A DNA stretch of 61,155 bases, the filler included, from Fonticula-like sp. SCN 57-25 (Eukaryota): NCBI GenBank assembly GCA_001724245.1. It is 4 parts of 4 records of this genome, joined end to end, with 100 filler letters (N's around TTAATTAATTAA, not from the genome) between each part and the next. Parts side by side here need not be neighbours in the genome. Positions count along the whole stretch, not along the records: positions 15,889 to 30,745 come from MEDX01000151.1; 3 more parts are not named here. One strand, written 5' to 3'. A model generated the notes under the pieces. It worked only from the letters and a program-made list of their open reading frames with translations, ran no database searches and was not told the DNA's origin. This document shows positions 2,222-47,987 of this stretch, one piece after another; position 1 is the first letter of the stretch, and each line of letters starts with the position of its first letter. The translations under genes were made by a program, and so were the position numbers.

Positions 2222-2659
2222 ATCTCAAATTCACTGGCAAAATAGATCGCGGTGAGTCTGCAATCACTCCCGCGCGAGCTCGAGCGACACGCACACTCGC
2301 TCGTTTCTGGCCCCCTTGAAAGTGACCAACAAGAAAGGAAGAAATGAGTCCGACGGCAAAAGGCGCTCCTTTAATCAAGCCTGCGTACGCGGTACCTGGC
2401 AAGCATACAAAGTGAGCAAAGACACCGTCAATAGCTCGGTCAACAAAGGCGCACTAGGGTTGATCGCCGTGTGACGCCGCTCCTACCACGCACACAAACA
2501 AGAAAGCGAGCCGAGAAGCGTGGATTATTCGGCTCTCGTGATCCATTTTCGGATGCAATCGCTCCTTTTAAGGAAATTATTTCCCCAATTTAGGCAGTTT
2601 TTACGTCACTGCGAGCTGCAATTTGCATCTCAGTTTGCAGTGGCGGTAGAGTGGCCGCA

Positions 2660-6706: not shown

Positions 6707-6852
6707 CGTGACAGACGGAGCGGAGCAGAGTCGATGTCGGCAGGCAGACTCTGAAATCGGATGTGATTATGATAGTCGCATATGATTTTTAGTTGTCACA
6801 TGCGATTCTGGTGTTTTTTGTTTCGCTTTTGCGTGAGCTAGCGGCCGGCGCC

Positions 6853-10841: not shown

Positions 10842-10925
10842 GGCGATGTTGACTGACGACAATCGAAATGCGCAGTCACGATTAACAAAACGCGCAGTCA
10901 TCGTTTCGCACGCGTGTCAGCGACG

Positions 10926-12122
10926 ATGGGGAGCAAACAACGCAAGAAGCGCAAGGTCGCCGATGCCGTCTCAATGATGAACAACATCAAGTGCACGAAT
11001 GGAAAGCTTGCGCGGTTGAGCAGGGTTCTCAAGGAGCAGGCGGTTCAGCACTCAAAGGCCGTGGCGGCCAAGAAGCGTCAAAAGGCTATCGAGGACGGGA
11101 CGCACGCTCGCGCCAAGGAGCGCCGCGCTGCCGCCGCCGCCGCCGAGACAATGCCGTACAAGGAAGGTCAGTGGATCCTCACTGTCGGTGACGGAAACTT
11201 TTCTTTTTCTGCGTCTGTCGCTGCGTCAATGGGCGATGGCGAGCGCATCGTTGCGACCGCGTTCGACTCGGCGGACGATGCGCTCACCAAGTACAGCGAC
11301 TTGCCCGCGCACCTCAAGGCGCTCGAGCAGCTCGGGGCCACCGTCATGTTTGACGTGGATGCGACGCGCCTGAATGAGTACTTTGAGTCAGAGTCGAGAT
11401 CGGCGAAGCGCCGCCGCCGCAACAGGGAGAAGGCGGCCGGAATTGGGGGTGAGGAGGAGGACGACGAGGAGGAGGAGGAAGAGGAAGACGACGAGGAGGA
11501 AGAGGAAGACGAGGAAGAGGAGGAGGAGGACGAGGACGAAGAGGAGGAGGAAGAGGAAGAGGAGGAAGAGCCTGTAGATGATGAAGAGCAAGACGACGAA
11601 GAGCAAGAGGACGAAGATGCCGATGACGAAGAACAAGAGGAGGACGACTCTGACATGCAGGAGAACGAGTCTGACGAGAACGAGGAGGACGACGAGGCAG
11701 GAGACGACGCGTTTGGCGATGCCGACCGCGACATTGTCAAGGAGGGCGAAATTCGCTTTGACTATATCGTGTTTAACTTTCCGCACGTCGGTCTGGGAAT
11801 CAAGGACGTTGACCGCAACATTGCGGCCAACCAGGAGATGCTCGTTGGCTTCTTTGACCGCGCTGGCCGCCTTTTGTCGCGCCAGGGCGAAGTCCACGTC
11901 ACTATCAAGACGGGCGACCCCTACGACCGCTGGAAGATTGTCAAGCTCGCGCACAGGAGCGGCAAGCTCCGCTTCAAGACGACGAAGACGTTTGATCCGA
12001 ATGTTTATCCGGGATATTCGCATAGGAGAACTCTCGGTGCGGTCGATGGACTGTCCAAGTTGGGCAACGAGGAGCTCAAGGGGAAGGAGTGCAAGACGTA
12101 TATCTTTGGCCTCGCGCAATAG
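10926..12122 (+). CDS. BMT5: 25S rRNA uridine-N3 methyltransferase BMT5-like (DUF2431) with long acidic insertion
   Basis: ILTVGDGNFSFS, VDAT, FDYIVFNFPHVG, YPGYSHRRT. Confidence 0.88.
   Translation: MGSKQRKKRKVADAVSMMNNIKCTNGKLARLSRVLKEQAVQHSKAVAAKKRQKAIEDGTHARAKERRAAAAAAETMPYKEGQWILTVGDGNFSFSASVAASMGDGERIVATAFDSADDALTKYSDLPAHLKALEQLGATVMFDVDATRLNEYFESESRSAKRRRRNREKAAGIGGEEEDDEEEEEEEDDEEEEEDEEEEEEDEDEEEEEEEEEEEPVDDEEQDDEEQEDEDADDEEQEEDDSDMQENESDENEEDDEAGDDAFGDADRDIVKEGEIRFDYIVFNFPHVGLGIKDVDRNIAANQEMLVGFFDRAGRLLSRQGEVHVTIKTGDPYDRWKIVKLAHRSGKLRFKTTKTFDPNVYPGYSHRRTLGAVDGLSKLGNEELKGKECKTYIFGLAQ
11451..11700 (+). repeat. GAR/GAC low-complexity tract encoding a poly-Glu/Asp insertion
   Basis: Runs of gaggaggaa and gacgag triplets. 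Confidence 0.9.
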
Positions 12123-12232
12123 GTTCCTATCCCCTTTGTACATAATGCACTGTCACCAAATGATGCTATTGGTTTATTTTCCGCTTTCGTGTTTGTGATT
12201 GGTCCACACAAATTGTGCTTGTGTGTGCCAGG

Positions 12233-14000
12233 ATGTCGGAGGGCGATGCCGGGCCGCCGGCCAAGACGGTGTCCCTGGAGGACATTCTGGACCCGTCCGA
12301 CCGCCGCATCAAAGAGGACATGCTCCGCATGATTCTCAGTTACCTTAATGAGGAGGGACTCCATACAGCGCGCCTCGCGCTCCAGGATGAGGCCAATGTA
12401 AAGGCCGCCACGGCGCGCGAGCGGCACGGCGACCTGCGCGCCGTCCGAAAGTCAATGAAAGGTGCGTGACGCGGTCATCCTGCATGTTTCTCTAACGCTG
12501 AGCTATTCATTTGTAGACGGTGACTGGCCCGAGGTTGAACGTCTTATTCAAAAGTTGAATATCCGCAACAACAAGGCGTTCCTCTACTCTGTGTACAAGC
12601 AGCAGTTCCTCGAGATGGTGGATGCCGGCGAGCTCCAGAAAGCGTTTGCGTTCCTCACCAAGCGCTTGAAGCCGCTCGAGAACATGCAGAGCTCGCCGGA
12701 CGAGTTCCGTGACCTCTGCTACCTGCTCACCTGCAAGTCGGTCCAGGATGCGCCGTCCTTCCGCAACTGGGAAGGGATAGGGCCATCGCGCGAGAGCCTA
12801 TTGGAGCGCTTTCAGAGCATGCTCGAAATTGAGACGCAGGACACGCAACGTACGCCATGCTGATCCCTCTTTGTGTATTAACACGCCATTCGCAGCCACC
12901 GAGCAGCTACCAACGGGCCGCCTTTTGACACTGATGCGCCAGGCGCTCGCGTACCAGCTCGAATTTTCCGCACACCGCCCGAAAGCGCTCCCAAAGATCA
13001 CCACGTACGCCCCGTATTGCTCTTTCGCCGCCTGTTCTAACAGTCGCCCAGTCTTCTCGAGGATTATGCGACGTACGTCGTACCGAACTCGTGCAAGCGC
13101 GTGCTTGAAGGTCACCTTGGCAACGTCAAGTGCGTCGAATTCATTGGCGAGGAAGGCGCGTACCTTGCGTCCGGCTCGAGCGACAATACGATTCGTATCT
13201 GGAAGACGTCCGACGGGACGTGCGGCGCAGTCCTTCAGGGCCACTCGTCGCGCGTGTGGGACCTGTCCTCGAGCCGCGACGGCGCTCACCTTGCGTCTGC
13301 CTCGGCCGACGGCACTGTGCGGCTATGGGACGTGCGCTCGCACCGGCCGAGCAGCATCGCGACGTACGCGCTCGACCAGTCGGACATTTACACCGTGTCG
13401 CACCACCCGCTGCAGCGGCACCTCGTCACGGGCGGGTACGACAAGCTCGTGCGGCTCGTCGATATCGGCACGGGCGAGGTGCTCAAGGCGCTCGCCGGGC
13501 ACCGCGCGCCCGTGTGCTCCACCATCTTTAACCCGTACGGAAACCTCGTCATCTCGAGCAGCAAGGACCACACGGTCCGCTTCTGGGACATGACGTCGGG
13601 CATCTGCGTCAACTCGATTGGCGCGCACCAGCACCTCGGTGAAATTACATCTATTGCCATCAGCAGCAACGGCCAGCAGCTGCTTACGTGCTGCAAGGAC
13701 AATAGCAATCGGCTGTGGGACCTGCGCATGCTCACGTGCAAAAAGAGGTTCAAGGGTCACCAAAACACATCGAAAAACTTTATTCGCGCCGGGTTTGGCG
13801 CCAAGACGACCGTCGTCGGAGGCTCAGAGGACGGCATTGTCTACATTTGGGACACGGAAAAGGGGCAGGTGCTGCAAAAGCTGAGGGGGCACGACGGGAT
13901 CGTGTACGAGACCGCCTGGAATACCAACCAGGCCGTGCTCGCCAGCTGCAGCGAGGACCGCACCGTCAGGCTATGGTCCTACGACGAGAAGAAGACCTAG
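12233..14000 (+). CDS. LisH-CTLH + WD40 repeat protein; 3 introns
   Basis: MLRMILSYLNEEG LisH, CTLH-like segment (GDWPEVE...YKQQFLE), about 7 GH-WD repeats. Confidence 0.88.
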
Positions 14001-14230: not shown

Positions 14231-15762
14231 TTACGCTTCGCAGAACGCCGTGATGGCAGTCCTCAAGGCGGCCGCAAAATCGTCCGGCGAAGCGTCGGCG
14301 GGTACCTGCAGGCGGCACACGCCGACCCACTTGACCTCGGGGCCCTTTGTAAAGGTGAGCAGCTCGCCGCCCTGCAGCGCCAGCCGACGCGTGCAATAGT
14401 ACAAAAACTGCAGGACGCCCGTGTCCGACAGCGAATGAACAAAACTAAGGCACAAAAGTGTTAGTCGTCGAAAGACAGCCAGAAAATTTCGTACGAAACG
14501 AGGTTGCCAAGCAGCTGCTCGTCGTCAGACTCGTTGGCGCCCTCGTCGTTCTGGATCGCAAACCGCTCGAGGATGGTCTCGCGCAGCACCGCCACCGGCT
14601 GGTACTGCCCCGCGAGGCAGAGGAAGAGCGCAAAAGTCGGCGTCCGCTTCATCATCGCCCTCATGTCGTCATCGAAAGCGACGGCGTTCTGTAGCGCCGT
14701 CATGGCGGGATCGTATTGCTTTACCCACAGACGCACCGCCCGCTCGCACTTGGCCACGCCTTCCGCCTCAAATGCCTGCTTGCGCGCACGGAGCGCCGCA
14801 AGCGGGTCAACCGACTGGATCGCATCGATCGACGTCGGCGGGCCGCGCGCCAGCCAGTCAACAAACAGAAGCGGGACTTCGACGCCGAGCGGCGTGCCAA
14901 AGATCAGCGAGCGCGCAATGATACGGCCAAGAGGAAGAAGCGACTCTGCCGACGCGCTGCGCAGAGAACAATAAATCAGCGGCTTGCAAAAGAAAAACAA
15001 AAAGCGTACTCTGGGNTCGGCGCAGATGGCGCGCATGGCGGTGCCGACGACGCTCGCCCAGCTCATCGCCACGCCGTCGACGTAGATCATCCAGTTTGAC
15101 CGGAGCTCGTCGTGGCGCAGCTGCCCGATGGTAGCCAGCAGCGACGCGTGGAGCGACGGCGACGACGACAGCTCGAGGACAACGGCCGAGCGCCTCTGCT
15201 GCGCCGTGCGGCTGTCGTGCAGCTTTGACAGCTGCGTCGCGCCTTGCAGGTCGTCGCTGTGCAGGAACGGGTTCAGGAGCGCCGCAGAGGCCGGCACGCG
15301 CTGACACGGCTGAGCGCGCTGAAATAAAGTCAGCTCAAGCCCACATAAAAATGGCGCGGAATCGTACCAGGAACGAGCTGACAAAGGAGGAAAGGTACTT
15401 TGACGCGAACCGCGGCGCGATCTTTGGCATGACGCAGCGGCGGCCCACGTAGACGACGCCCTCGTTATCGATGCTGAGCATGTCGGCGACGACGCAGCCG
15501 GCGAGGTACATGTCGCTCGCAGGGCTGGCGGGCAGGCTCGCGCGGCGCGTGTCGGCGCGCCCGCGGTCCTGCTTGCCGGTCGCCGAAAAGAACCCGACAA
15601 TGACGGGTACCACCTCGTCCACCTCGCGGCCGGCCGTCATGATAATGTTGCTCGTGGAGAGCGAGCCGTGCGTCACGTTGTGGGACGCGAGTACGGCAAG
15701 CGACTGGAGAATGTCGTGGATAATGCCCTGCATCGTCTTTTGCGACGCCGTCGTCGCATTCC
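14231..15762 (-). CDS. Pseudokinase C-lobe fused to a degenerate HECT-like domain (5' end lost in gap)
   Basis: HGSLSTSNII, SDMYLAGCVV and QRVPASAALLNPFL kinase subdomains, then LGRIIARSLIFGTPL..P, LQFLYYCT and VCRLQVP...S.DDFAAALRTAI HECT-like motifs. Confidence 0.55.
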
Positions 15763-15788
15763 TAAATACAAGCGTGTGAGCAAGGAGA

Positions 15789-15888
15789 NNNNNNNNNNNN
15801 NNNNNNNNNNNNNNNNNNNNNNNNNNNNNNNNTTAATTAATTAANNNNNNNNNNNNNNNNNNNNNNNNNNNNNNNNNNNNNNNNNNNN
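15789..15888. other. Assembly gap with TTAATTAATTAA linker
   Basis: 100-nt N run with a central all-frame-stop spacer. Confidence 0.98.
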
Positions 15889-15894
15889 ACGTAC

Positions 15895-16641
15895 CCATTT
15901 GCTCGGTAAGGTGCTGCCACTTGAACTTTGGAAGGTACTTTACGTTCCAAATGTCGTCGTAGTAATAGTCGCGCTTCTTGCCGCCTATTGTGCACGGTCA
16001 GCGCTCAATTACACTCAAAAAAACATTATAAACACTCTAATAAAGCACAAATTGTATATATTTGTACCGATTGTCTGGTTGTTTAGCATGGCGGCGGTGC
16101 GCTTGGCGATGCGCTTGTCGAGGAATTCGACCCATCCTTCGACGTAAAACTTTTTGCGGTTGCCACCGAGCTTTCTCCTCTTTGCGCGCGCCTTGGCGTC
16201 CTCCTGCTTGAGGTACACGCGGCCGATGGCGCCGTACCGCGACAGCAGGCTGCGCACCTTTTGAGGCTTCATGTACGGCGGGATGCGCGACAGGTAGACG
16301 ACGCCGGTGCTCTCCATGCGCTCCTGGAACTCTTTCAGCTCCTCGGGGCTCAGCGCCTTGACGCCTTTGCGCTTCTTGGGCTGAAGCGTGGGGATGTCAT
16401 TGCCATCATCCTCGCCATCGTCGTCATCATCTTGGTCGTCATCGTCGTCATCATCGTCGTCGTCGTCGTCCTTGTCATCGTCCTCATCGTCCTCAACTTC
16501 ATCATCATCATCAATTTCATCCTCCTCCTGCTCGCTTCCCGAGTATGACTGCTCCTCGTCCTCAAAGCGCTCGTCGTCCTCTTCTTCCTCCTCGACGACA
16601 GGCGCACGAGCGTGCTTCATGATGGCCGCGCCGCGTGGCAT
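15895..16641 (-). CDS. ESF2: Pre-rRNA processing protein ESF2/ABT1 (3'-truncated at gap)
   Basis: Acidic N-terminus, TGVVYLSRIPPYMKP, EGWVEF, GGKKRDYYYDDIWNVKYLPKFKWQHLTEQ. Confidence 0.93.
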
Positions 16642-16711
16642 CCCCGATATGTCCACGTGGATAGTGATTTGGTGTGTCAGCGTAACGACCTTTGATGGCC
16701 AGCAGCCCACG

Positions 16712-17092
16712 ATGATCCTCGGGATCGGCCAGGATGTTGTGAGCCTGGCGCGCTTTGCGGGCGTCGTGGAGCGCGTTGGTGCGCAGCGGCTTGCCAGGCG
16801 GATACTGGCGACGAGCGAGCAAAAGGAATTGGAAATGATCCACGCGCGGGACCGGCAAGTAAGACTGTTGGCCGCGCGGTTCGCCGTCAAGGAGGCATTC
16901 TTCAAGGCGACGGCGGGCATCGGCGAGGCAACATGGAAAGAGGTTCACGTGGAGAAAAGTGACAGGGGAGCGCCGCTTTTGCGTGTTTCTGAGCGCCTTA
17001 CAACGCAGCTCGGCATCGGTCGGTCACACGCGACGATCGCACATGATGGCGACTACCTCGTCGCTTCGGTGATCCTCGAGAGTAAAGAATGA
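16712..17092 (+). CDS. AcpS-type 4'-phosphopantetheinyl transferase (PPT2-like); intronless
   Basis: MILGIGQDVV, AARFAVKEAFFKA, GAP, TIAHDGDYLVASV. Confidence 0.92.
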   Translation: MILGIGQDVVSLARFAGVVERVGAQRLARRILATSEQKELEMIHARDRQVRLLAARFAVKEAFFKATAGIGEATWKEVHVEKSDRGAPLLRVSERLTTQLGIGRSHATIAHDGDYLVASVILESKE

Positions 17093-17722
17093 GGGGATCA
17101 TGTGCGTGTATGGGAAGCGGACGCGGTTTGCGTGTTGTGTGTATTTTTATGTGTTGGTTGTATAGCCAGATGTCCATGCGCGTTGACTTGCGGTGTGGCC
17201 TTTTGTTTTCGTTGTACATTATGATATGAACTACTTTGAGTAAAATACAACATTGAGTGACCTCTTGACATGCCAATGACCCTAGGCTTTCTACTTCTAA
17301 TACTTGGAATGAGAATTAAAAGACGAGCAAAAAAGAACAATACTGAAATAGTGCGTTTCGTTGTCATAAACTGGACTCGTGTGCGACGAGAGGGATTCTG
17401 GCCGCATGCTCCATAATTGGTACACTACGTACCGGCTTCCTATGCATATACATACAAATATATGGATGCTAGACGTAAATAGTACAAAGAGCACTCGTTT
17501 CTGTCTAGTATGATACCGGTATCATACAGTATGATATGATATGTATGAAAGAAACACATTGACCAATGACACTCCAACATTGTACAGTGGGACCAAATGG
17601 ATTATTGCAAGCTAGCCTTGTCGTGAATGTTGCCTATTTCGTGGCCACAACTCCACCTACGCACATGACACAAAAACACAATGTCGTCAAAAAGAGCGGC
17701 GCGATGTCTTCCTGCCATATGA

Positions 17723-17754
17723 TCACGTGCTTTTGTGATTTTGGGTCACGTGAT
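17723..17754 (+). promoter_or_regulatory. Paired CACGTG E-boxes upstream of WD40-SAM copy 1
   Basis: TCACGTG at 17723 and GTCACGTGAT at 17745; the pair is conserved in all three copies. Confidence 0.7.
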
Positions 17755-17849
17755 CATTGGTTTGCGTTCACGGCGCCGGCGCCGCGCATCTGCGGTAGCA
17801 TCTGTCGTTTGACTTGTTTTGGAGAGAAAGCAGAGGTAGTGACGCTGGT

Positions 17850-19928
17850 ATGGCACAGCAGTTGGCCAAAAAGACGAATATTGAGCTTCACGCCAAGGGG
17901 GTGCGTCGACGTTTTGGTGAGCTGCTGGTCTGTTGCTGATTGCGTTCGCAGGTTTTTGGTTGTGCGATTTCCCCCAATGGCACTTTGTTGGCAACTGGGA
18001 GTATTGACAAGTCACTCTGCATCACCAACATCGTCACGCAGGAAAAGGTGTACAAAGTGGAGTGTGATGATGAAGTACGTTCTTGTCTGTCCTTTTTCAT
18101 TCTAACACCATCAAGGTGCGGTTGGTCGCTTGGTCGCCCGACGGGACCCGTCTTGTCGCCGTGACACTTGGTGGCAGCGTCATCCAAGTAACAAAGAACA
18201 ATGCGCACTCGACCGTGTACAAGATCAACGCGGCTGTATGCATCATGCTTGCCGTTCATTCTTTGCTTATATTATGCTCTAGTTATGGGGATGCGCGTTC
18301 AGTCCCAGTGGGATCGTTGCCGTCGGTGGGAATGATCAAGCAGTTACACTCTTGGATCCATCCAACAACTATTCGGTTGTCGAGACATTATCTGGATTGG
18401 CTGAAAAAGTACGCTATTGTATGTTTACTTGCTGATGTTTACCGTGGCATGTGCAGGTGAGGTGTTTTGCCTTTTCACCCGACGGGAATCTTCTTGCCGT
18501 GGGATGTTTTCATGGCCACATGTATATTTATGGACTGACCAATGGCAAGTGGGCGCGAGTGGCTTATAACAAGTATCACTCTAAATGGGTACGGTGTTGC
18601 CTTTTATATTCTCATTATTAATTGTTACAAGGTCATGTCACTCTCCTTTAGTCCCTCTGGCCGCATGCTGTTGGCCACAAGTGATGACATCACTGCCTCC
18701 ATCTGGAATGTTCCATCTGGAACCACATGGCCATCAACTCCTCACGTGACACTTATAGAACACTCGCATCAAGTCAATGGCGGCGCTTTTCTTGGTGATG
18801 AGTCGCATGCCATCACTGGGTCGGCAGATGAATCCCTTAACATTTGGCGCACCTCTGATGGAGAGCAAACTGTAAACTACGAATGTGATAAATCGGTGCG
18901 TCACTTGTGCATCTCTATTTTGCTCACTATTTTCTTTCTCTTCAGGCATGGTCACTATCATATCATGCTGCATCTGGAGTCATTGCCGTTGGTACTAGTA
19001 AGGGTCATGTTGAAATATGGCAAACAGCGGCATGTGATCCGCGTAGTATTTCTGCCGCTCTTAAATCGCATGCTTGCATCCGTACTAGATTGAGCGTTGC
19101 GCAGGCACAAGCCAATGATATCCAAGCATCATTAAAGAAAGCAGATGATAAATTACGTCAGAAGATGTCACGTGAACAAGAACTGAAGCGCTCAATTGCC
19201 GACCTAGAGGAAAAACGTGCGCACTTTCTCCTTTATAAGCAGCATACTGATTGTGTCTAGTGGCGAGTGAGAAAGAGGCATTAAAGAAATTGCAAACCGG
19301 TGACTATATTGCACAGTCACGTGTGTATAGTGAGCTGAATGAGCGCCACAGTGAACTACTTGGCATCATCAATGTTTGCACGCAGACACTTGACAGCTTG
19401 ACAGACTGTCTGTCTGTTTCCGGATTGGAGGATCTCCGCGGCGACACCTTCAAGGAGTGGTTGTGCGACATTGGCATGAGCAAACTGCAAACTTCATTAA
19501 AAGATATTGACGGTGTTTCCCTGACGATGCTAAATGTGGGTGACGTCACGGAGTATGACGTCACCTTCAATGATGCCGCTACCCTTCACTTGCGCGGCTA
19601 TATTGCGCAATACAAGCTGAGTGATGACAGCGCATTTGCGCCGCCCAATGAGACTGTCCTGTCATGGGACGAAGTGCAAACTGCAAACTGGATCAAGACA
19701 CTTGGTGCCCCATATGAGTCTCTTTCCTCTGCTGGCTGGCATGGTGCTGCACTGTGTTCTCTTTCGCCGCCACGTGTCATTGAAGCCGGCAAGGGATCGC
19801 TCAAGGCACCAGACGCAGTAAGGTTCATTGGACTTGTGCGTGCAAAGCGGAGAGAACTTGACGGCGAAAAGGACGATTGGGTGTCAAAGTGGACCGGCAC
19901 GGCAACAATTGAATTACAGGCTGTATAG
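17850..19928 (+). CDS. WD40(x7)-coiled coil-tandem SAM-like protein, copy 1 (exons 17850-17900, 17952-18074, 18116-18235, 18283-18408, 18457-18588, 18632-18895, 18946-19216, 19261-19928)
   Basis: GT-AG splicing gives an open frame; WD repeats (CAISPNG, AWSPDG, AFSPSG, TGSAD); heptad region; SAM-like FKEWLCDIGM..IDGVSLTML and VLSWDEVQTANWI..WHGAALCSL. Confidence 0.85.
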
Positions 19929-20634
19929 TTTTCCTGTCTCTTTCAGTTCAGCCAAGCCTCTTTTCCCTCCATTATTTTCTTTTTCCACCATTTCTCTTGT
20001 TTTATTTACTTACAATTTTCTGATTGGACTGTGAGACAATTTTTCCCTTTTCGCCCACATTCCCTCTCTATTTATCCATCTTCTTCCACCCTCGTGAATC
20101 AACCATAATCACAAACAGAAGAGATCCGATGCTGAACTGCGCTGTGAGGGATGCCCGGCCACCCGCAAAACTGAATCACATGTTCAATTATGTCGTCCAA
20201 TCCTATTGAGCGTGTGGGCTGCGACGCGCGACAGGCATGCCTCTAGGGTAACATGTGGGCTATCAAGGTGGGTCGCTCCGCACGCGGACGGCGGCCAGCT
20301 GGCAGGCACAATAAGCGGACGGCATCAGATAAAGACATGTATACACTCGCGGGCATTGGCTGGAATTCTCTGCAGGCAGGGTGGTAGGGCGATGGACGAT
20401 GCGTGGTTGATCTTGCTTGATCACACAGTACTCGTTAGAGCCAACTTAGGAGGGCGATGAGGGAGGATGGATGGCGATGAGGAAGAGTAAACGGACTAAG
20501 GGGATGCAATTGCGTGACAGGCACATTATTGTTGAATATTGTTTATCTTTTGCACGGCACTGAAAAGATACCGCAAAGAGAGGCACGAAAACGTGCACTT
20601 GCATTTTTGCAACCTGTCCTGTGTGAGCAGTGAG

Positions 20635-20664
20635 CACGTGATGATGAAAGTTTAGTCACGTGAT
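20635..20664 (+). promoter_or_regulatory. Paired CACGTG E-boxes upstream of copy 2
   Basis: CACGTG at 20635 and GTCACGTGAT at 20655. Confidence 0.7.
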
Positions 20665-20741
20665 TTTTGCTTTGCGCGCCAACGACCACCACGGCGGCCA
20701 GCCGCGGCCTCAAGGAACCGTAGAGCGAGTGACGCTTAGCA

Positions 20742-22837
20742 ATGTCGCATCCGTTGGCCACAAGGGCGAATATTGAGCTGCACACGGATGGGGTGCGTTT
20801 ATTTTGTGTGATAAGCTGCTGATCTGATGGTGATCGTGTTTTCAGATTCAAGGGTGCGCGATTTCCCCCGACGGCACGTGGGTGGCATCTGGTAGTGACG
20901 ACAAGTCGCTCTGCATCACCAATATTACCACGCAGGAAAAGGTGTACACTGCAGAGTGTGATAGTCAAGTGCGTGCTTTTTTGCCCTGTCTTGTTTTGAC
21001 ACTTCATCAAGGTGTGGGGCGTCGCTTGGTCATCCGACAGAAAGACTCTGATCGCTGTGACAACCGGTGGCAGTGTCTTCCAAGTCACGAACAACAATGC
21101 GCACTCGTCCGTGTACAAAATCGACAAGGCTGTATGTATCATGTTCGCCGCTCGTTCTTTGCTCATCCCTTGTTTAGTTGGGTGGATGCGCGTTCAGTCC
21201 CAGTGGGATCGTTGCAGTCGGTGGAGTTGATAGAGCAGTCACGCTCTTGGACCCAACCAACAACTATTCGGTTATTGAAACATTATCTGGATTGGCTGAT
21301 GAAGTATGATATTGGATGTTTGTTGCTGATGTTTACCGTGGCCTGTGCAGGTGAGATGTCTCGCGTTTTCTCCTGATGGGAATCTGCTTGCCGCGGGATG
21401 TGATGGTGGTCACATGTATATTTATGGACTTTCCGATGACAAGTGGGCACAAGTATTTTACAAAAATAATCATTCTAAATGGGTACGATATTGGCTTTTA
21501 TATTCTCTCCATGGCAAATTAACTATTACTAGATATGGTCACTTTGCTTCAGCCCCTCTGGGCGCATGCTATTGGCCTTGAGTGATGACTACACAGCTTC
21601 CATCTGGAATGTTCCATCTGAAACCACGTGGCCAGAGGATCCTCACGTGATACTCGAGGGACACACGCGTCAAGTTAATGGCGGCGCTTTTCTCGGTGAT
21701 GAGTCACATGTCATTACTGGGTCTGCCGATCGATCCCTTCGCATTTGGCGCACTTCTGATGGAGTGCAAACTGCAAAATACGAATGTGATAAATCGGTGC
21801 GCCACGTGTGCGCCTTTTATTTGCTCATTCTTTAATGCTATTTAGGTGTGGTCGCTGTCATATCATGCTGCATCTGGCGTCATTGCAGTTGGCCTTGCCG
21901 ATGGTCACATTGATTTATGGCAAACAGCCGAATATGATTCGTTTGATATTTCTGCAGCACTTCAATCGCATGCTTGCTTTCGTACTCGATTGAGTGTTGC
22001 GCAGTCACGAGCCAATGATATCCAATCATTAATTGAAAAGGCGGATAGTGAATTACGTCAGCAGATGTCACGTGAGCAAGAACTGATACGTTCGATCGCC
22101 GACCTCGAGGAAAAATGTGCGCACTTTCTATTTTATAAGCATCCTACTGATTGTATCTAGTGGCGATCGAGAAAAAGGCCCTAAACGAACTGCAAACTGC
22201 CGACTATATTGCACAGTCAAGTGCTTTAAAAAACCTAACGGAGCGCCACAATGCTCTTCTGGGTGTTATTCATGGCTGCACACAGATACTAGACAGCTTG
22301 ACAGATTGCCTATCTGTTTCCGGATTGGAAGATGTTCGCGGCGACGCCTTTAACGAATGGCTCTGTGACATTGGCATGAGCAAACTGCAAACTTCTTTAA
22401 AAGATATTGACGGTGTTTCCCTGACGATGCTTAATGTGGGCGACGTCATGGAGTATGACGTCACCTTCAACGATGCCACTGCCCTTCAACTGCGCGGCTA
22501 CATGGCGCACTACAAGCTGAGTGATGACAGCGCATTTGCCCCGCCAATTGGGAGTGTATTGTCATGGGACGAAGCGCAAACTGCAAACTGGATTGCTTCA
22601 CTTGGTGACTCTTATGCTTGTTTGTCTGATGCTGGCTGGCATGGTGCTGCACTTTGCTCTCTTTCACCGCCACGTGTTGTTGAAGCCGGCAAAGGAGCAC
22701 TCAAGGTACCAGATGCTGTAAAGTTTATAGGACTGTTACGCGCAAAGCGATCCGAAACAGACGGCGATAAGGCCACGTGGGTGTCAAAGTGGACCGGCAC
22801 AAGCGCCATTGACAATCAAGCTGTACTTTTTTTATAG
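20742..22837 (+). CDS. WD40-coiled coil-tandem SAM-like protein, copy 2
   Basis: Same 8-exon structure as copy 1, starting MSHPLATRANIELHTDG|IQGCAISPDG; frame appears intact. Confidence 0.85.
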
Positions 22838-23240
22838 TGTTTCTTACCATTCTCATTAATCGTCTTTGTTGATACCGGATATCATGCTCTTGTGGTTACA
22901 CTTTTCAACAAGCTATGATTATTAATTTATAATTTTGATATGTTACCGGTATTGTATGTATCATATTCAAACGGCAAAACAACAAGAATTAGATGTGAAT
23001 TTGAGTTTGAATTTTAGTTGAACCACCAGTACCGGGTACGGCATCTGACCGGACAGACGAGACGTTCAGATGATGCTTGCGCAATGCTGCCGACGCTAAG
23101 AAAGAGATGCAGCTTGGCCACAGCCGTACCGCCCGCGTTATGCGCAGAATGATCGAGGTAGTGCAACCCGCCGGCTTACTTTCAGCTGGGCAGCACACGC
23201 CATCCTTAGAAGATCATTATTGTGCTGATCGCCATATGAT

Positions 23241-23270
23241 CACGTGATGAAATAAATTTAGTCACGTGAT
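23241..23270 (+). promoter_or_regulatory. Paired CACGTG E-boxes upstream of copy 3
   Basis: CACGTG at 23241 and GTCACGTGAT at 23261. Confidence 0.7.
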
Positions 23271-23349
23271 CTTTGCTTTGCGCCAACGACTGGCGACCGC
23301 CCACATCCACGGCGGCCTCGAGCAAAAGTATAGGAAGTGGCGCTTAGCA

Positions 23350-25410
23350 ATGGCGCATCCATTGGCCAAAAAGGCTACTATTGAGTTGCACACGAAGGGG
23401 GTGCGTGAAGGTTTTGGTGAGCTGCTGATCTGACGCTGCTTGTGTTCGCAGGCGGACGGGTGTGCGATTTCCCCCAATGGCACTTGGGTCGCAACTGGCA
23501 GTCAAGACAAATCGATCTGCATCACCGACATTGCCACGCAGGAAAAGGTGTACACTGTAGAGTGTGATAATCAAGTGCGTGCTTGTGTGTCCTTCTTTGT
23601 TCTGACGCCTTTTCAAGGTGCGTGGTATCGCTTGGTCGCCCGACGGAACCCATCTGATCGCCGTGACGACTAGTGGCAGTGCCATCCAAGTCACAAACAA
23701 CGACGCGCACTCGACCGTGTACAAGATTGATAAGCCTGTATGAATTATGTTTGCCGCTCGTTCGTTGCTCACCCCTTGTCTAGTTGTGGGGGTGCGCGTT
23801 CAGCCCCAGTGGGATCCTTGCCGTCGGTGGAAATGATCAAGAAGTTACACTATTGGACCCATCCAACAACTATTCAGTTATTGAGATACTATCTGGATTT
23901 GCTGATAAAGTATGCTATTGTATGTTTACTTGTTGATGTTTACCGTGTATGTGCAGGTCAGGTGTCTCGCGTTTTCTCCTGATGGGAATCTTCTTGCCGC
24001 GGGATGTTATGATGGCCACATGTACATCTATGGACTGACCAATGGCAAGTGGGCACGAGTATTAACTAACATGTATCATTCTAAATGGGTACGATATCCA
24101 TATTGCTTTTTATATTCTCATTGCTAATTATTACTAGGTCATGTCACTTTGCTTCAGTCCCTCTGGTCGCATGCTACTGGTCACAAGTGAAGACATGACT
24201 GCATCCATCTGGAATGTTCCAAATGGAACCACGTGGCCATCCACTCCTCACGTGACTCTTAAGGGGCACACGAATCAAGTCAATCGCGGCGCCTTTCTCG
24301 GCGACGAATCGCATGTCATCACTGGGTCGGCTGATAAATCACTACGCATTTGGAGCACTTCTGATGGAGTGCAAACTGTAAACCACGAATGCAAACCGGT
24401 GCGTCACTTGTGGTCTTTTTTTTTTGCTTATTTCTTTGATGCTATTTAGGCATGGTCACTGTCTTACCATGCTGCATCTGGTATCATTGCCACTGGTACG
24501 AATACGGGTCAAGTTGGAATATGGCAAACAGCCGCATATGATCCATGTGATGTTTCTGCGGAACTTCCGTCACACGCATGCGTCCGTACTAGATTGAGAA
24601 TCGCACAGCTTCAATCAAATGCTGCCGAAACAACGCTCAGCAAGGTAGACAATGGATTACATCTGCGGATGTCACGTGTACAGGAACTGAAGCGATCGAT
24701 TGCCGACCTCGAGGCCAAACGTACGCATTTAAGGATCACGTAGTTATACAACTAACATGTGTACAGTAACGGGCGAGAAGAAGGAGCTAGCGGAACTGCA
24801 AACTGACGAATTGCGTCATTTCAGTAATGTGACGGAGCGCCATAATGCTCTGCTTGGCATCATCAATGTCTGCACGCAGACCCTTGACAGCTTGACAGAT
24901 TGCCTGAAGACTTACGGATTGGAGGATCTTCGAGGAGACGCCTTTAAGGAATGGCTATGTGACATTGGCATGAGCAAACTGCAAACTTCATTGAAAGATT
25001 TTGATGGCAGCACTCTGACAATGCTTAACGTGGGTGACGTCATGGATAATGACGTTACCTTTAACGATGCCGCTGCTCTTCACTTGCACGGCTACATTGC
25101 GCACCACAAGCTAAGTGATGACAGCGCATTTGCCCCGCCCAGTGAGACTGTCCTATCATGGGACGAAGTGCAAACTGCAAACTGGATAGCTTCCCTTGAT
25201 GACCAATATGATTGTCTTGTTGATGCTGGCTGGCATGGCGCTGCTCTATGCTCACTTTCGCCGCCACGTGTGGTCGAGGCGGGCAAGGGCGCACTCAAGG
25301 CAACCGAAGCGGCAAAGTTCATTGGACTTGTGCGTGCAAAGCGGAGAGAAATTGACGGCGAAAAGGACGAATGGGTGTCAAAGTGGAGCGGGGCAAACGT
25401 CATTGCTTGA
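23350..25410 (+). CDS. WD40-coiled coil-tandem SAM-like protein, copy 3
   Basis: Same 8-exon structure, starting MAHPLAKKATIELHTKG|ADGCAISPNG; only small in-frame deletions seen. Confidence 0.85.
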
Positions 25411-25685
25411 CAATTATACCTTTTTTATCTGATATGTATTCTGCTCCCTTGAAATGAACAATACAACAAAGCACTTCTCAAAAATCTACCCTGGAATCTG
25501 CCCCGTATCCGCTGCTCGTCCAATCACGTCGCGTTTCCCCTGTCGACGCGTCGGAGGCGGTGATCGAGTCCAAGTCGCCTTCGTGCTTGCGCCACCTACA
25601 CGAGCGACGACTACGGCGAAGAGCAACGTGGTGTCACAAGCACACAACACTTTTAAAAACTTTTATTATTTGTTTCTTTTTCGCG

Positions 25686-26745
25686 ATGCCAATGGACGAT
25701 CTGAGCGATGCCGAATCGGTGTCGGCCTTTTTTGATGCCGAGCCTCGCCCCGACTCACTCACGGCATCGCTCGCCTCTGTGCAGCACTTTATCGATGTCC
25801 ACTCTGTAAGCGACCGTCGTTTTGTCCTTGTGACCGTGCGCCTTTCCCGATCCCCTTTTCATCATGCTCATGTTCACCTTTGCGTATCATTGGCAGTCTG
25901 GCGGCACGACTGTGGCCATGGAGCGCAACACGGTGCGCTTCATCGACAATTTCAGCGCCGGCACGCGCGGCTCCGCCTCTGTCGAGTACTTTCTTCAGGC
26001 CGGCTACGTCGTGATCTTTCTTCACCGCCGCGGCAGCCTTCTCCCCTACCTGCGCAACATCAATCCCCACGAGCTGCTGAATCAGCTTTCCGTCGCGCCC
26101 GATGACTCTGTTTCGCGTACGCCGCATCTCTATTTCAATATGAATATTATTAACAAATTTCATTCTAAACGTACAGTAAAGGGCGATGCGCGCCGCACGA
26201 TGGCGCATGCACTTCGCGATTACGAAATGTACCGCTCTCGCCTTTCCTTCATCCCCTTTGGCACTGTCACCGAGTACCTCTACCTCCTCCGCGGCATCTC
26301 CCAGCTCCTCTCCCCCCTCGGCCCCCGCGCCATGCTTTACCTCGCCGCGGCCGTGTCCGACTTTTACATCCCCTTTGCCGACATGAACGAGCACAAGATC
26401 CAGTCGCGCGATGGCGGCCTGCTAATGTCGCTCAAGCAGGTGCCAAAGATGCTGGCGGCGCTCACCGCCGAATGGTCGCCAAGCGCGTTCATAGTCACGT
26501 TCAAGCTCGAGACGGACGAGAATCTTTTATTGGCAAAGTGCCGCGCGGCGCTCGACAGGTACAGGCATCAGGTGACCATTGGCAATATTCTTCATACGAG
26601 AAAGGATTGCGTCATTGTTGTGCATAAGGAGGAGAGCGAGCCGGTCGAGCGCATCGTGAGGGACCCGGCGCTAAGTGATATTGAGGATGCGCTCATTTTG
26701 AGGCTTGAGAGACTTCATACGGCATTCATCGAGCACAACGCCTAA
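25686..26745 (+). CDS. PPCS: Phosphopantothenate--cysteine ligase; 2 introns
   Basis: [58 protein letters not shown]. Confidence 0.95.
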
Positions 26746-27023
26746 TTTGTAAATATACGTCTCATTATTACATGGTTGTATCTTATGTATGGCTGAGGTA
26801 TGGTTACATAGTATCTATAGAAAAATAATGTGACTCTTTTTGTGTCAATTCTATGAGAATATATGGCTAATGTTTCACAATATTCCATAATACTTCTTGT
26901 ATCAATGCCATAAAGTAAACTTTCTATTTCCATAAAAAGGCAAAGGCGCATTACAATTGAGCATAAACATTCGGAATTTACAAACTATCATCAGACTATC
27001 TAAATAAATAATAAATAAACATA

Positions 27024-29258
27024 TTAATGAGGCAGCGACGTCTCAATTGTATGAAGCGTCTTTAATATCCTCTGCATCCTCTTATCATCATCGCTCGGCC
27101 CCGCCGCCGACGCCGCCTCGCCAAACAGCATAATCTTATTGACGTACTTTACGCAGAAAATAAGCCACATGGCCACCTCGTGCGACCCCGACGGGCTCGC
27201 CACGCGCTGCGCCACGTGGGGCGTCGAAATGTACTCGCACAGACGCAGGCACGAATCCACGAGCGCATCAGAAAACGTCTCAAGGCACCGAATAAACCTC
27301 AGAGACGATTCGCTTTCTTGCTCGCCGTCGGCCAGGGGCGACGCAATCCACGCGCCGGCGACGGCCTTTGTGACCTCGAGCAGCTTGATAATCTGCTCAA
27401 AGTGCGCCATGACGCGCGCCTTTGACATGGACTGCGTGCTCGCCTCAAACTCGGCCATCGCGACCGAAATGTACTGCGACGCAAGACGAAGGCCGTGCTC
27501 GGCAAGCTCGCGCGAGGGCAGTCCGCCCCCGACTCCGCCTCCGACAATGCCGACGGCGGCCCGCGCGAGCGCCATGGTCTGCATGGCAAAGGCGAGCGAC
27601 TCTTGCGTGCGCTTGCTCTTGCCCTTGGCGATCACCTGCACCGCCGTGACGCGCTCGAGGGCGTCCATGGCGGACATCGTGCGCGACACGACCGCGCACG
27701 CGCGGCCGCACACCCACGCGCCAGCGGCGGCGAGCAGCGCCTCGTCGACGGGCAGGCCGCGCGCGCGCCAGCGCTTGGCGTCGCTGCTGAGCGTGTCGCC
27801 CCAGATGTGCGCCTTGGACTGCAGCACTTCGCCCTGTTTTTTGAGGTCGGCGGCAAGGTCGTCAAGCGGGACAAAGGTGTCGGCGGGGCCAGAGGCGAGC
27901 GTCGCGCGCATGCTCGCGCTCACCATCACAAAGTGGGAAAGGTCCTCGAGGCGCGACTCGACATTGCGCCAGTTAGGGACGCTCTGCGCCATCTCCTTGC
28001 TGCCGCCGGGGTACCACTGGGGGGCGCTCTGAAGGGCCTCAACAATGCGCGTGATCTCGTCCGGCGTCGTAGGGATGCTCAACAAGAGCGACGCAGCGAC
28101 GACGAGGGTTTCTTCGCGGCCGCGCTCGGCAAGGGCTTCAAACTCATCGGCGGTGATGCGGCGGCCGCGGCTCTGCACCTCGACCCACGTGCGGTTCTTG
28201 CTCGCAGCAGAGGAGGCATTGGCGTCAGTGTCGTTGCCGCGAAGGCGCTTGGCGAGGCGCGTGTTGAGGCGGCGCTGAAGAATCTGCACGGCTTCGGTCG
28301 ACGTCACAGAGTCAATGTCCTCAATAGAGGTCGGCGCGCGCTTCACGCCAAGCATCGGCGGAGGCGGCGGCGGGGGGGGAGGCGGGCCGCCGGCGCTCAT
28401 CATTGGCGGAGGCGGCGGGGGGGCGATCGGCGGGCACGATAGGTCGACGAGCAATGGCTGCTGCTGCTGCCTCAAGGCGGACCGGGTGGGCGTGGCAATT
28501 TTCCTCGCGGGCGACGCGGCAAAGGCGAGCGGCGAGAGGGCGGCGACCGGGAGCGAGCGGTAGAGCGGCGAGTTGGCGGGGCTCGCGCTGCGCAGCGTGC
28601 TGCGGCGGTCAGAGAGCGGCGAGCCGAGGCCGCCGAGCGAGTCGCTCACGGGCACGAGCGGGGCAGGCTCATAGTCGTCCGCCATGGGCCGCGACGGGCT
28701 TAGGCTGTAAAACTCGCGAAGAATGTCGCGGCGGATGCGCGCCTGGCGAGCGCGTGTGTTCTCAGGGGCGTTCTCGTTGGTCTCGCAGGCGCGCTTGGCG
28801 GCGGCGGCATCGAGCGACTCGTCGGCGCTCGAGTTGGTGCGCTTCAGGCCGCGGCGCAGCGTCGACAGCTCGGCAAAGATGCGCTTGGAGATGGGCTTGC
28901 GCGTGGCGACCGACGGCGTCACGAGCGAGTCGCCCTGCGGCATCTCCTTCTCGACAACGCTCTCGAGCGCAGTCATCAGCGTGCCCATGACATTGCGCCA
29001 CATCGCAGACACGGTCGGGTTCTTTCCCTCAGCAGGGGTCGCCTCGGCGCGGCGCTTTGCCGACATCAAAGGCTCATCGGCGGGATCCGCCTGCTTGCTG
29101 CGGCGGAACAGATTGCGAGCGGACGACTGGGGGGTCCGCACGGGCAGTGGGGGAGGAACCGCAAAAGAGATGTCATCCATCGATTCCGAGAAAGAGTGCA
29201 TTCTCCCACTCGTGCTCCTGAGCTGGCGCTGCTGCGGCAGCGGCGTGGCGGTCATCAT
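27024..29258 (-). CDS. 744-aa intronless protein: disordered N-terminus, polyproline tract, helical C-terminus (possibly CHUP1-C-like)
   Basis: Long GC3-rich ORF; PPPPPPMMSAGGPPPPPPPPPP; KRWRARGLPVD and CVKYVNKIMLFG motifs. Confidence 0.8.
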   Translation of the reverse strand: MMTATPLPQQRQLRSTSGRMHSFSESMDDISFAVPPPLPVRTPQSSARNLFRRSKQADPADEPLMSAKRRAEATPAEGKNPTVSAMWRNVMGTLMTALESVVEKEMPQGDSLVTPSVATRKPISKRIFAELSTLRRGLKRTNSSADESLDAAAAKRACETNENAPENTRARQARIRRDILREFYSLSPSRPMADDYEPAPLVPVSDSLGGLGSPLSDRRSTLRSASPANSPLYRSLPVAALSPLAFAASPARKIATPTRSALRQQQQPLLVDLSCPPIAPPPPPPMMSAGGPPPPPPPPPPMLGVKRAPTSIEDIDSVTSTEAVQILQRRLNTRLAKRLRGNDTDANASSAASKNRTWVEVQSRGRRITADEFEALAERGREETLVVAASLLLSIPTTPDEITRIVEALQSAPQWYPGGSKEMAQSVPNWRNVESRLEDLSHFVMVSASMRATLASGPADTFVPLDDLAADLKKQGEVLQSKAHIWGDTLSSDAKRWRARGLPVDEALLAAAGAWVCGRACAVVSRTMSAMDALERVTAVQVIAKGKSKRTQESLAFAMQTMALARAAVGIVGGGVGGGLPSRELAEHGLRLASQYISVAMAEFEASTQSMSKARVMAHFEQIIKLLEVTKAVAGAWIASPLADGEQESESSLRFIRCLETFSDALVDSCLRLCEYISTPHVAQRVASPSGSHEVAMWLIFCVKYVNKIMLFGEAASAAGPSDDDKRMQRILKTLHTIETSLPH

Positions 29259-29339
29259 GGTGCGCTCGCTCGCACCGTCAGGAGATCACCTAAAACAAGG
29301 ATTTTCAAATCGTTGCAACGCTTGTAACGGGCGCGAATC

Positions 29340-29371
29340 TGACGTCATCATCTACGTCATCAGTGACGTCA
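29340..29371. promoter_or_regulatory. Two CRE palindromes (TGACGTCA) in a bidirectional promoter
   Basis: TGACGTCA at 29340 and 29364, between divergent start codons at 29258 and 29406. Confidence 0.55.
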
Positions 29372-29405
29372 CGAGCAGTGTTTGCGACGCATCAACTCGA
29401 GGGAA

Positions 29406-30278
29406 ATGGATCGCGCGAGGTACGCGAGCATGCGCGGGGATGCCGGCCGCTGACCCGTGTTCTTTGCGCAGTGACAGCCCCATGGACGGCAAGGTCGCTG
29501 GACGCGGGCGCAGCCGCAGCCGCAGCCGCGGGCGCAGTCGCAGCCGCAGTTTTAGCAGCCGCCGGCGGAGCCTGAGCAGCAGCCGTAGCCGCAGCCGCAG
29601 TTTCAGTCGGAGCCGCAGCCGTAGCCGCGGGAGGAGAAGAAACCGCTCGTCGTCGAGCCGCAGCTGGTCGCGCAGCCGCAGCCGCGGGAGGCGCTACAGC
29701 CGCAGCTTCAGCCGCAGTCGCAGCCGCAGCCGCAGCCGCAGCCGTACCCCGCCGCCCAAGACGAGGATCCATGTGACGAAACTGACCCGCAACGTGCGCG
29801 TGGATCACTTGCGCGAAATTTTCGGTCAGTACGGCAAGATCACCGAGCTTGTTCTTCCAATCGACCGCAAAAGTGCGCCTTTCCCCTTTTACATCCTCTA
29901 TGATCGCGCTACTTTTTTTTGTTTGCTGACCGCTTGCCATTCTTCCCAGTTCACCGCCACCGCGGCGCGGCGTTCATTCAGTATGAGGACCACGACATGG
30001 CGACGAAAGCGATGGAGCACATGGGCGGCGGCATGCTCGACGGCGAGACGCTCGAGATCGCATGGGCCGCTCCGCGCCCGCCGCAGCAGCGTCGCCGGAA
30101 CGACCGCAGATCGCCTGCCAGGTTTGGCGGCGGCGGTCGCCGCGGGCGCAACAACAACCGCTTTGGCGGTAACAGGCGGTACTCGCCGCGCCGCAGGTCG
30201 GCGTCCCCGCGCCGCAGATCCGCCTCGCCTCGGCGCAGATCATACTCGCCGCGCCGCCGATCCCGCTCGCGCTCGTGA
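29406..30278 (+). CDS. RNPS1: RNPS1-like RS/RRM splicing and EJC factor; 2 introns
   Basis: RS repeats ((cgcagc)n), IHVTKLTRNV..HLREIFGQYG, HMGGGMLDG, C-terminal RSP repeats. Confidence 0.88.
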
Positions 30279-30414
30279 TCTGCAACATTATTTCCCCCTT
30301 TGTATTCCCTCTGTTTTCAATATCAAAACTATGTCTTTATTATTTACGGCGCGCTCATGCGCGATACCCGAATGTATTGACAACAAAGCATTGAACTAAA
30401 CATCATAAATAAGC

Positions 30415-30745
30415 CTAGCCGTGGTGCGAGTCGAGCAGCGGCGACGCCTCCCCCACGTCATCCGGGTGCACGTTCGAGTGGTGCCCGTCCGCAGACGTCG
30501 TCAGCACGCGGTGCAGCACCTCGCGGTCAAAGTTTTCAAAGCGCTCTGCCAGCGACAGCGACTTTGACGACAGCCTCGGAAGATCCTCCGACGGCGGGTC
30601 CTTTGACGGATCGTCGTTGATCTTGATCTTGAGCGAGCGCAGGACCGGCACCGTGCTGGCACCAATGATGACGGTCGTGGCGAGCACGATGACAAACGTG
30701 GTCGTAATGATGGTCGACCGCGTCGCGATGGTCTCGGGCAGCAGG
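30415..30745 (-). CDS. Na+/H+ exchanger (NHX1/NHE type), C-terminal fragment
   Basis: IITTTFVIVLATTVIIGASTVPVLRSLKI followed by FENFDREVL. Confidence 0.75.
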
Positions 30746-44724: not shown

Positions 44725-45256
44725 CGTTGCTGGCAGGGTTCGGTCACCCAAACGAAATCTGGGGCAGACTCTTGGGATGGAATGTCAAAAGGACTGTGCA
44801 AGGTGGTGGACTGTGAACGGCTTATGGACTGACGGAGCCTTTGAGCGAAGCGAGAAGAAACGCATTAAAGCCAACCAAAAAAAAACACCCGCATTCTGTA
44901 AGCCTGTGGGCATAGGTTGTACGCGTCGTGATGTGCAATTCATATCGTGAACAGCTATGGATGACTTTTCAAACGAAAGACTTTTGACATCGGTAGGTTC
45001 GCAAGGAAGGAACGCATAGCAGGCAAAACAAGAATGCGCGCAACCCATTCGCCGTTCGACATAGGTTAAATGAGTATCGAATATGCTCAGGGTCTAACCC
45101 AATCTCCATCTCTCCATCTCTGTCCACTCAAAGCCGATGCGAAAAAAAGGATTCCATCTCGTCTCCCATCGCAACCCACCCCACTGCCCATGCTGCAAAA
45201 TATCAAAAAGCATATTATATATTCACCTACCCTAGTTTTCCACAAAAGCGATTTGT

Positions 45257-47919: not shown

Positions 47920-47987
47920 GCTTGCCGCGTCAAAGGGGCAACGGTCCACTCGCGAGCGCTGGCGCGCAAATTGTTTGCCGTCACGTG

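Follow-up and report, generated by a model that had tools for sequence, protein, structure and literature searches.

Three co-oriented genes in a stretch of 61,155 nucleotides (nt) from Fonticula-like sp. SCN 57-25 (assembly GCA_001724245.1) encode proteins in which a WD40 propeller is followed by a coiled coil (about 95 residues), two rigidly paired SAM domains and a short Trp-rich tail. The whole stretch, here called the window, consists of four parts joined end to end that need not be neighbours in the genome, and positions 15,889-30,745, where the three genes lie, come from MEDX01000151.1. Our reading, to which we assign a probability of about 0.55, is that the trio is a local tandem triplication within a large, lineage-specific family of non-enzymatic scaffold or oligomerising adaptor proteins of WDSUB1-like descent. 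The original prediction, made from the sequence alone, took the same genes for a diversifying receptor system. Its observation is confirmed and its interpretation is half right: the architecture is new and lineage-specific and its SAM domains are real, while evidence for a diversifying receptor is lacking.

Gene models and domain architecture

The coordinates of the gene models (Table 1) are taken from a three-way DNA alignment, in which exons and introns are in register. The three start codons fall exactly where the original prediction had placed them (ATGs at 17850, 20742 and 23350), and the frames of the three paralogues are intact: the predicted models contain no in-frame stop, and each of their 21 introns is of the GT..AG type with a length between 41 and 53 nt. 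When an independent spliced aligner was guided by the gene 1 protein alone, it gave exactly the same seven introns for gene 2. Pairwise, the three proteins are 72-75% identical.

The fold of the last exon was predicted with AlphaFold2 (AF2) from an alignment of 35 family sequences. The model, with a predicted local distance difference test (pLDDT) score of 95.8 and a predicted template modelling (pTM) score of 0.86, contains a long helix and two five-helix bundles (exon-8 residues 56-122 and 129-206). Both bundles superpose on SAM structures over the whole domain, with the Z scores given in Table 1, and in a VIA-align comparison of the model with 48,161 chains, SAM or PNT domains fill almost every one of the best 50 rows. 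The profile of the family matches liprin-beta-1 SAM123 with an E value of 1.9e-6, and among the 35 family members Pfam finds SAM_1 in seven (best 1.8e-5) and SAM_2 in three. On this modelled fold and these family-level profiles the C-terminal module is confirmed as two SAM domains, and the alternative of a C-terminus without the SAM fold fails. A phmmer search of the last exon against PDB sequences gave nothing below an E value of 0.4, and an Atlas feature search with the same exon, in which SAM clusters came second and third, scored 0.76 at best and gives no more than a lead. Prediction of a homo-dimer of the last exon, run without controls, scored 0.01, a value that speaks neither for nor against a dimer. 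In the tail, the first tryptophan (W206) is invariant in all 35 rows of the alignment and the second (W210) is kept in at least 90% of them.

The WD40 part is recognized by Pfam at E values of 1e-3 or lower on exons 2, 5 and 6, with two stretches in exon 6, which is also the only exon to pass the gathering score (39 bits versus 27); exons 3, 4 and 7 give weak propeller matches only. The first blade begins at residue 12, and Pfam has no match upstream of it. Within one protein the blades are 12-38% identical (mean 24%), as is ordinary for divergent WD40 units, and no DNA repeat of blade length was found in the trio genes. In the heptad region, six to seven of eight a and d positions are hydrophobic across residues 310-365, with 41% charged or Gln, and the AF2 model has a helix at exon-8 residues 13-52 with pLDDT above 90. 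The proposed order of propeller, heptad region and two SAM domains accordingly stands as to the SAM domains, by fold and profiles, and as to the heptads, by their occupancy; the number of seven blades is the part that goes beyond the three exons with significant WD40 matches. No catalytic or other Pfam family occurs on any exon of the trio or on the nine intergenic or antisense open reading frames (ORFs) of the block in which the genes lie, as had been claimed.

The exon boundaries follow the blades. Introns 1-5 (at 17901-18631 in gene 1, with the same layout in genes 2 and 3) give one exon to each of blades 1-4, and the introns are of phase 0 up to intron 6, intron 7 alone being of phase 1. 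An arrangement of one phase-0 exon per blade would permit blade shuffling.

A tandemly amplified family under purifying selection

With the last exon as query, HMMER gave 35 relatives among 1.84 billion representative proteins at E values of 1e-3 or lower, 25 of them at 1e-10 or lower. There is no properly spliced full-length family protein among these 35, because all are 61-422 residues long and those inspected look like exon-level ORF calls. The family alignment took in 28 of them and left out four short fragments (P0003, P0010, P0013 and P0019), two very short sequences (P0032 and P0035) and the repetitive P0033, whose match is confined to query residues 102-153 and which seems to be unrelated. 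A word-seeded search for longer relatives returned five proteins, all from metagenome assemblies and none of them named.

When metagenome contigs were scanned with a nine-row family alignment, 29 family loci with 42-78% identity appeared, all in two assemblies. Spliced alignment gave complete stop-free copies in L004, L011, L014, L015 and L018, and five copies have the same seven introns as the trio; the copy in L014 has six introns and the one in L015 is modelled with nine. At least four co-oriented copies stand on a single 14-kb contig (L018), three of which recur as an exact duplicate in L017, and there are further arrays in L011 and L026. In a quick maximum-likelihood tree, most deeper forks of which are unresolved, the window trio forms one clade (Shimodaira-Hasegawa-like approximate likelihood ratio, SH-aLRT, 92), with genes 1 and 3 paired at 96, and the four L018 copies form another (100). 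From this follows that the arrays grow by local duplication. With 35 relatives in the protein library, 29 loci and tandem arrays, the proposal of a lineage-specific multi-copy family holds, and that of a conserved single-copy housekeeping gene fails.

The L018 contig also carries an MFS transporter ORF between array copies 1 and 2 (2137-3699) and, after the four-copy array, a rhomboid-like gene (11719-13200) in DNA with a GC content of only 0.33-0.42. Stops in the tblastn matches of related loci might suggest an alternative genetic code or pseudogenes, an idea that was rejected, as these stops lie almost all in query gaps, i.e., in in-frame introns. The spliced models of the related loci are free of stops except for three partial copies with one stop each, which are read as alignment edge effects.

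The abundance of related sequences is reflected also in contig depth, calculated from four public runs at 90% likeness or more. In run X1 the summed depth is 100-550 over the coding bins of the trio versus 7-15 on the flanks, and the other three runs have the same pattern; summed depth here counts many related sequences and is not a measure of copy number. Exact pieces of the trio were found in runs X1, X3 and X4. Outside the trio, an acidic low-complexity run of Asp and Glu codons at 16384-16767, in a minus-strand gene upstream, gives an artefactual depth (1208 summed in X1) and many false joints.

The three genes share their upstream sequence elements as well. Before each of them there are paired CACGTG boxes about 22 nt apart (17724-17754, 20635-20664 and 23241-23270), the proximal of which is GTCACGTGAT. 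This sequence occurs four times in the window when 0.11 occurrences are expected; three of the four precede the start codons of the trio by 87-105 nt, and the fourth lies at 47980-47989, near a TPR gene. Among nine related copies with upstream DNA, a TCACGTGA-type box is found 61-109 nt before the start in six and at -250 in a seventh, and it is absent from two short upstream stretches. The density of CACGTG is 2.65 per kb in the 29 related loci versus 0.62 per kb in the window, a difference of about fourfold. The best reading is that the trio and its relatives form a family that would be co-regulated through a common TCACGTGA box. We take this palindrome to be the kind of site that is bound by basic helix-loop-helix (bHLH)-zipper factors such as fungal Cbf1, which is a lead.

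Consider then how the copies diverge. The pairwise ratio of nonsynonymous to synonymous substitution rates (dN/dS) within the trio is 0.28-0.31 overall, with values of 0.28-0.37 for the WD40 part, 0.09-0.19 for the first SAM domain (SAM1) and 0.18-0.33 for the second (SAM2), and none of the 25-codon segments exceeds 0.75. For 112 family pairs with dS below 0.9, the ratio is mostly 0.3-0.9 in the propeller and mostly 0.02-0.39 in SAM1, and for the closest pair (L004/L027) it is 0.86 versus 0.25. Over 21 sequences the column entropy amounts to 0.93 bits in SAM1 and 1.09 in SAM2; the coil has 1.30, the blades range from 1.13 to 1.55, and the linker has 1.67. A parsimony count of sites on a tree of 21 family members gives one nominally positive and 139 negative out of 581 sites, in a test of low power that could miss a few selected sites, and domain ratios of 0.51-0.70 for blades, 0.50 for the coil, 0.31 for SAM1 and 0.44 for SAM2. 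The whole protein is under purifying selection, with no sign of diversifying selection found, and the constraint on the propeller is roughly half that on SAM1.

Closest known proteins and competing explanations

Marin (2010, PMC3087547) defines WDSUB1 by seven WD40 repeats together with SAM_2 and a U-box, places bona fide WDSUB1 in animals only, with several independent losses there, and describes a WDSUB1-like gene of the choanoflagellate Monosiga with two SAM domains and a U-box and no WD40. The trio likewise has WD40 repeats, putatively seven, followed by SAM. Two distant relatives from the whole protein library, P0026 and P0034, match the double-SAM module with E values of 6.5e-10 and 5e-6 and then continue into a U-box (Pfam 1e-7 and 2.2e-9), for which the best PDB match is plant PUB12. 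Three relatives (P0034, P0023 and P0030) begin with what appears to be the last WD blade. Rows of the Atlas structure search that name WDSUB1 are at most a lead, as their template modelling (TM) scores are just 0.23-0.32. From the U-box after the module in distant relatives it follows that the WDSUB1-like group would be the closest known kind for the trio, where animal WDSUB1 is compared by description and not by sequence. It differs from the trio in three respects: the trio has no U-box on any exon, the protein ending 15 residues after SAM2 and the spacers holding no further domain; it has two SAM domains instead of one, preceded by the coil of about 95 residues; and it is amplified in tandem arrays. 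As the trio lacks the defining U-box, its genes are not members of the WDSUB1-like group, and they would be a variant that has two SAM domains and a coiled coil but no U-box. The original prediction had mentioned WDSUB1 and set it aside for its U-box; the U-box is indeed absent here, but with two distant relatives that end in one, WDSUB1 is closer than was supposed.

The tandem-SAM scaffolds SARM1 (SAM1-2), liprin (SAM123) and caskin (SAM1-2) resemble the trio in that two SAM domains are packed as one unit. However, the relative orientation of the domains differs, with a root-mean-square deviation (rmsd) of 9-12 A over both, and the W-x3-W-x-G tail is the trio family's own. In contrast to SARM1, the trio has neither the TIR NADase nor the ARM domains, by Pfam on all exons; the other domains of caskin are also missing. 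No paper that describes a propeller, a coil and two SAM domains in one protein was found in open-access text and preprints, in agreement with the suggestion that the family had not been described.

In the mechanism that we propose, the family would descend from the WDSUB1-like group (WD40/SAM/U-box) and have lost the ligase domain. Coil and SAM pair together would drive self-association, or association with other SAM proteins, and the faster-evolving propeller would bind a partner that differs between the copies. The trio proteins would act as oligomerising adaptors and not as enzymes.

Several points weigh against this reading. Splicing and expression of the trio are predictions from the DNA, and we infer self-association from the behaviour of such domains elsewhere. 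The link to WDSUB1 comes from two of the 35 relatives, both distant, and a word-seeded search from P0034 for named full-length relatives returned only P0034 itself. The SAM fold is called from a model with Z scores of 8-10, which may be ordinary for helical proteins, although each match spans a whole SAM domain. The last exon of the trio has no Pfam match of its own at E values of 1 or lower, and Foldseek has no match at 1e-3 or lower, its top rows being the tandem SAMs of SARM1, liprin and caskin. The seven blades are counted from repeat units that are visible in the translation. Finally, the low GC content at third codon positions (GC3) of the trio, described below, could also reflect a different evolutionary history of these genes.

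Among the alternatives, the one that survives best is a split U-box ligase, in which the copies without a U-box would serve as exchangeable substrate receptors, their SAM pair docking onto a paralogue with two SAM domains and a U-box. The substrate bound to the propeller would differ from copy to copy, an arrangement comparable to that of cullin ligases and their expanded F-box and BTB families. In some relatives a U-box does follow the same double-SAM module, constraint is strongest on the SAM domains and weakest on the propeller, the family has expanded in tandem, and WDSUB1 itself, according to Guan et al. (2023, PMC10238197), is a working E3 ligase recruited by the scaffold WHRN. However, no member with a U-box was seen in the window or among the 29 related loci, and the relatives that have one share only 24-26% identity with the window module and may belong to other organisms. 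The split ligase is an improbable account of the trio. The broader form of the idea, in which interchangeable receptor subunits with propellers would use coil and double SAM to assemble with either a SAM-SAM-U-box paralogue or some other SAM-bearing effector, is similarly doubtful.

Somewhat less probable still is the original proposal of a diversifying sensor and oligomerising adaptor for recognition of non-self, prey or pathogens, analogous to SARM1 or to the fungal HNWD NOD-like receptors (Podospora HET-E/D/R), which are likewise a multi-copy family with a WD40 propeller. The proposal is consistent with the tandem amplification and the many diverged copies, with a propeller dN/dS that is two to five times that of SAM1 in many pairs (such as L004/L027), with a tandem-SAM fold resembling that of SARM1, and with a low GC3, which fits conditionally expressed genes. 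Against this, no domain of the trio has a dN/dS above 1 (the overall ratio is that of Section 2, 0.28-0.31), the single nominally positive site among 581 is below chance expectation in the low-powered parsimony test, and the blade entropy is only modestly above the 0.93-1.09 bits of the SAM domains. The parallel with the HNWD receptors fails too: the trio lacks HET and NACHT, as well as TIR or any other effector domain, and its divergent blades are neither near-identical nor homogenised, with no positively selected repeat positions detected by that same low-power test.

The block and its surroundings

The adaptor reading treats the trio as native genes, and the base composition bears on this. 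As had been noted, the three genes form an AT-richer block with a codon usage of its own. Per 1-kb interval the GC content is 0.45-0.53 at 17-27 kb and mostly 0.54-0.69 elsewhere, and GC3 is 0.47-0.51 in the trio versus 0.67-0.83 in all 18 neighbouring ORFs, including the PPCS-like ORF directly downstream at 25834. As GC3 is high in this ORF and in the other neighbours, the block extends over about 17.1-25.8 kb. The GC content of non-coding DNA is 0.41-0.42 in the trio introns, 0.44-0.50 in the trio spacers and 0.44 and 0.38 in two dynamin introns, and the GC3 of the trio is near these values. In our reading the genes of the block are native and their codon adaptation is weak, which would mean low or conditional expression, and the DNA is not of foreign origin.

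Transfer of the low-GC block into this genome, be it from a different organism, a virus or a mobile element, is very unlikely. It could explain the sharp step in GC3 at both edges of the block, but the trio introns match those of the neighbours in length and donor style (the dynamin introns nearby are 50 and 58 nt long, with GTAC-type donors), the intron positions are shared with family members in a related organism, viral contigs and prokaryote genomes gave no relatives when pattern scans were followed by tblastn, and ORF and repeat checks of the block found no flanking transposase or repeat. Least probable of all are redundant duplicates that drift towards pseudogenes, since the weak codon bias and an overall dN/dS of about 0.3, above that of typical core genes, are met by three frames and 21 splice sites intact at a dS of about 0.5, by 139 sites under significant purifying selection and by a conserved promoter box.

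Repeat-induced point mutation (RIP) was considered as a source of the low GC content and rejected, since the TpA/ApT ratio of 0.55-0.59, the (CpA+TpG)/(ApC+GpT) ratio of 1.38-1.43 and an inter-copy transition/transversion ratio of 1.1 are not RIP-like. The lowest-GC spots outside the block (0.40-0.42, at 15751-16250, 26501-27250 and 58251-59000) are apparently intergenic, non-coding DNA being generally richer in AT than the genes.

The rest of the window contains ordinary eukaryotic genes (kinase, Sec24, ALDH, dynamin, PRP19-type WD40, AP-mu, SNAP, AMP deaminase and others), and an Rfam scan of the window gave no match. The PRP19-type WD40 ORF at 9873-10916 on the minus strand (Pfam WD40_Prp19, E value 1.5e-21) is outside the family of the trio and is taken as a coincidence; PRP19 itself is a U-box, coiled-coil and WD40 protein. 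The sole taxon-flavoured clue in the window is a minus-strand ORF at 45090-45518 that matches the fungal-type mitochondrial ATP synthase subunit f (PF10791, E value 1.6e-6). A single-exon ALDH8A1-like gene (5267-6766, minus strand) has its best named relatives, with 56-61% identity, in corals, Balamuthia, Basidiobolus and Mortierella, and its named matches overall come from animals, Amoebozoa and early fungi, with a few from bacteria. The subunit f match hints at a fungus-like source, without placing it; our guess is a fungus-like or other amorphean protist that lacks close relatives among sequenced organisms.

Table 1. Positions in the window of the three genes, the parts of their proteins, the upstream boxes and the block
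Feature	Position	Strand	Description
Gene 1	17850..19928	+	584 aa, 8 exons, 7 introns of 41-51 nt; frame intact, TAG stop 19926-19928
Gene 1 exons	17850-17900, 17952-18074, 18116-18235, 18283-18408, 18457-18588, 18632-18895, 18946-19216, 19261-19928		
Gene 1 WD40 propeller	17883..19047	+	residues 12-306, seven blades (putative count); exons 2-5 one each, exon 6 two, the seventh at the start of exon 7
Gene 1 heptad / coiled-coil region	19081..19418	+	residues ~318-415, ~95 residues, split by intron 7 (19217-19260)
Gene 1 SAM domain 1	19428..19628	+	residues 419-485; tankyrase-1 SAM Z 8.9 (rmsd 1.2 over 60), DGK-delta Z 8.4, Ste50 Z 8.1
Gene 1 SAM domain 2	19647..19880	+	residues 492-569; CNK2/HYP SAM Z 9.9 (rmsd 1.9 over 71), PHC3 Z 9.0, SARM1 Z 8.5
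Gene 1 C-terminal tail, W-x3-W-x-G	19881..19925	+	15 residues; most conserved motif of the family
Gene 2	20742..22837	+	587 aa, 8 exons, 7 introns of 43-53 nt
Gene 2 last exon: coil end, both SAM domains, tail	22161..22837	+	77% identical to gene 1 exon
Gene 3	23350..25410	+	575 aa, 8 exons, 7 introns of 43-51 nt; sister of gene 1 in family tree
Gene 3 last exon: coil end, both SAM domains, tail	24767..25410	+	75% identical to gene 1 exon
Promoter box GTCACGTGAT, gene 1	17745..17754	+	105 nt before ATG; second CACGTG at -126
Promoter box GTCACGTGAT, gene 2	20655..20664	+	87 nt before ATG; second CACGTG at -107
Promoter box GTCACGTGAT, gene 3	23261..23270	+	89 nt before ATG; second CACGTG at -109
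Low-GC3 block with three genes and spacers	17093..25833	.	between phosphopantetheinyl-transferase-like ORF and PPCS-like ORF (starts 25834)

Implications for the WDSUB1-like group

WD40, coiled-coil and SAM domains are each familiar, and what is new is the combination of a propeller, a coil and two SAM domains, with no U-box and with amplification in tandem. If the trio is derived as we propose, the poorly understood WDSUB1-like group would have an expanded U-box-less branch outside animals. The family is also tractable, since there is a very confident model for a fragment of 221 residues, with which one could ask if tandem SAM domains together with a coil assemble into a signalling polymer in microbial eukaryotes. 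Should the copies instead turn out to be interchangeable receptor subunits, they would be parts of a split, WDSUB1-derived machine for signalling or ubiquitylation, the target range of which grows by tandem duplication. This would be a new design, in a eukaryotic lineage, for variable recognition based on SAM polymerisation.

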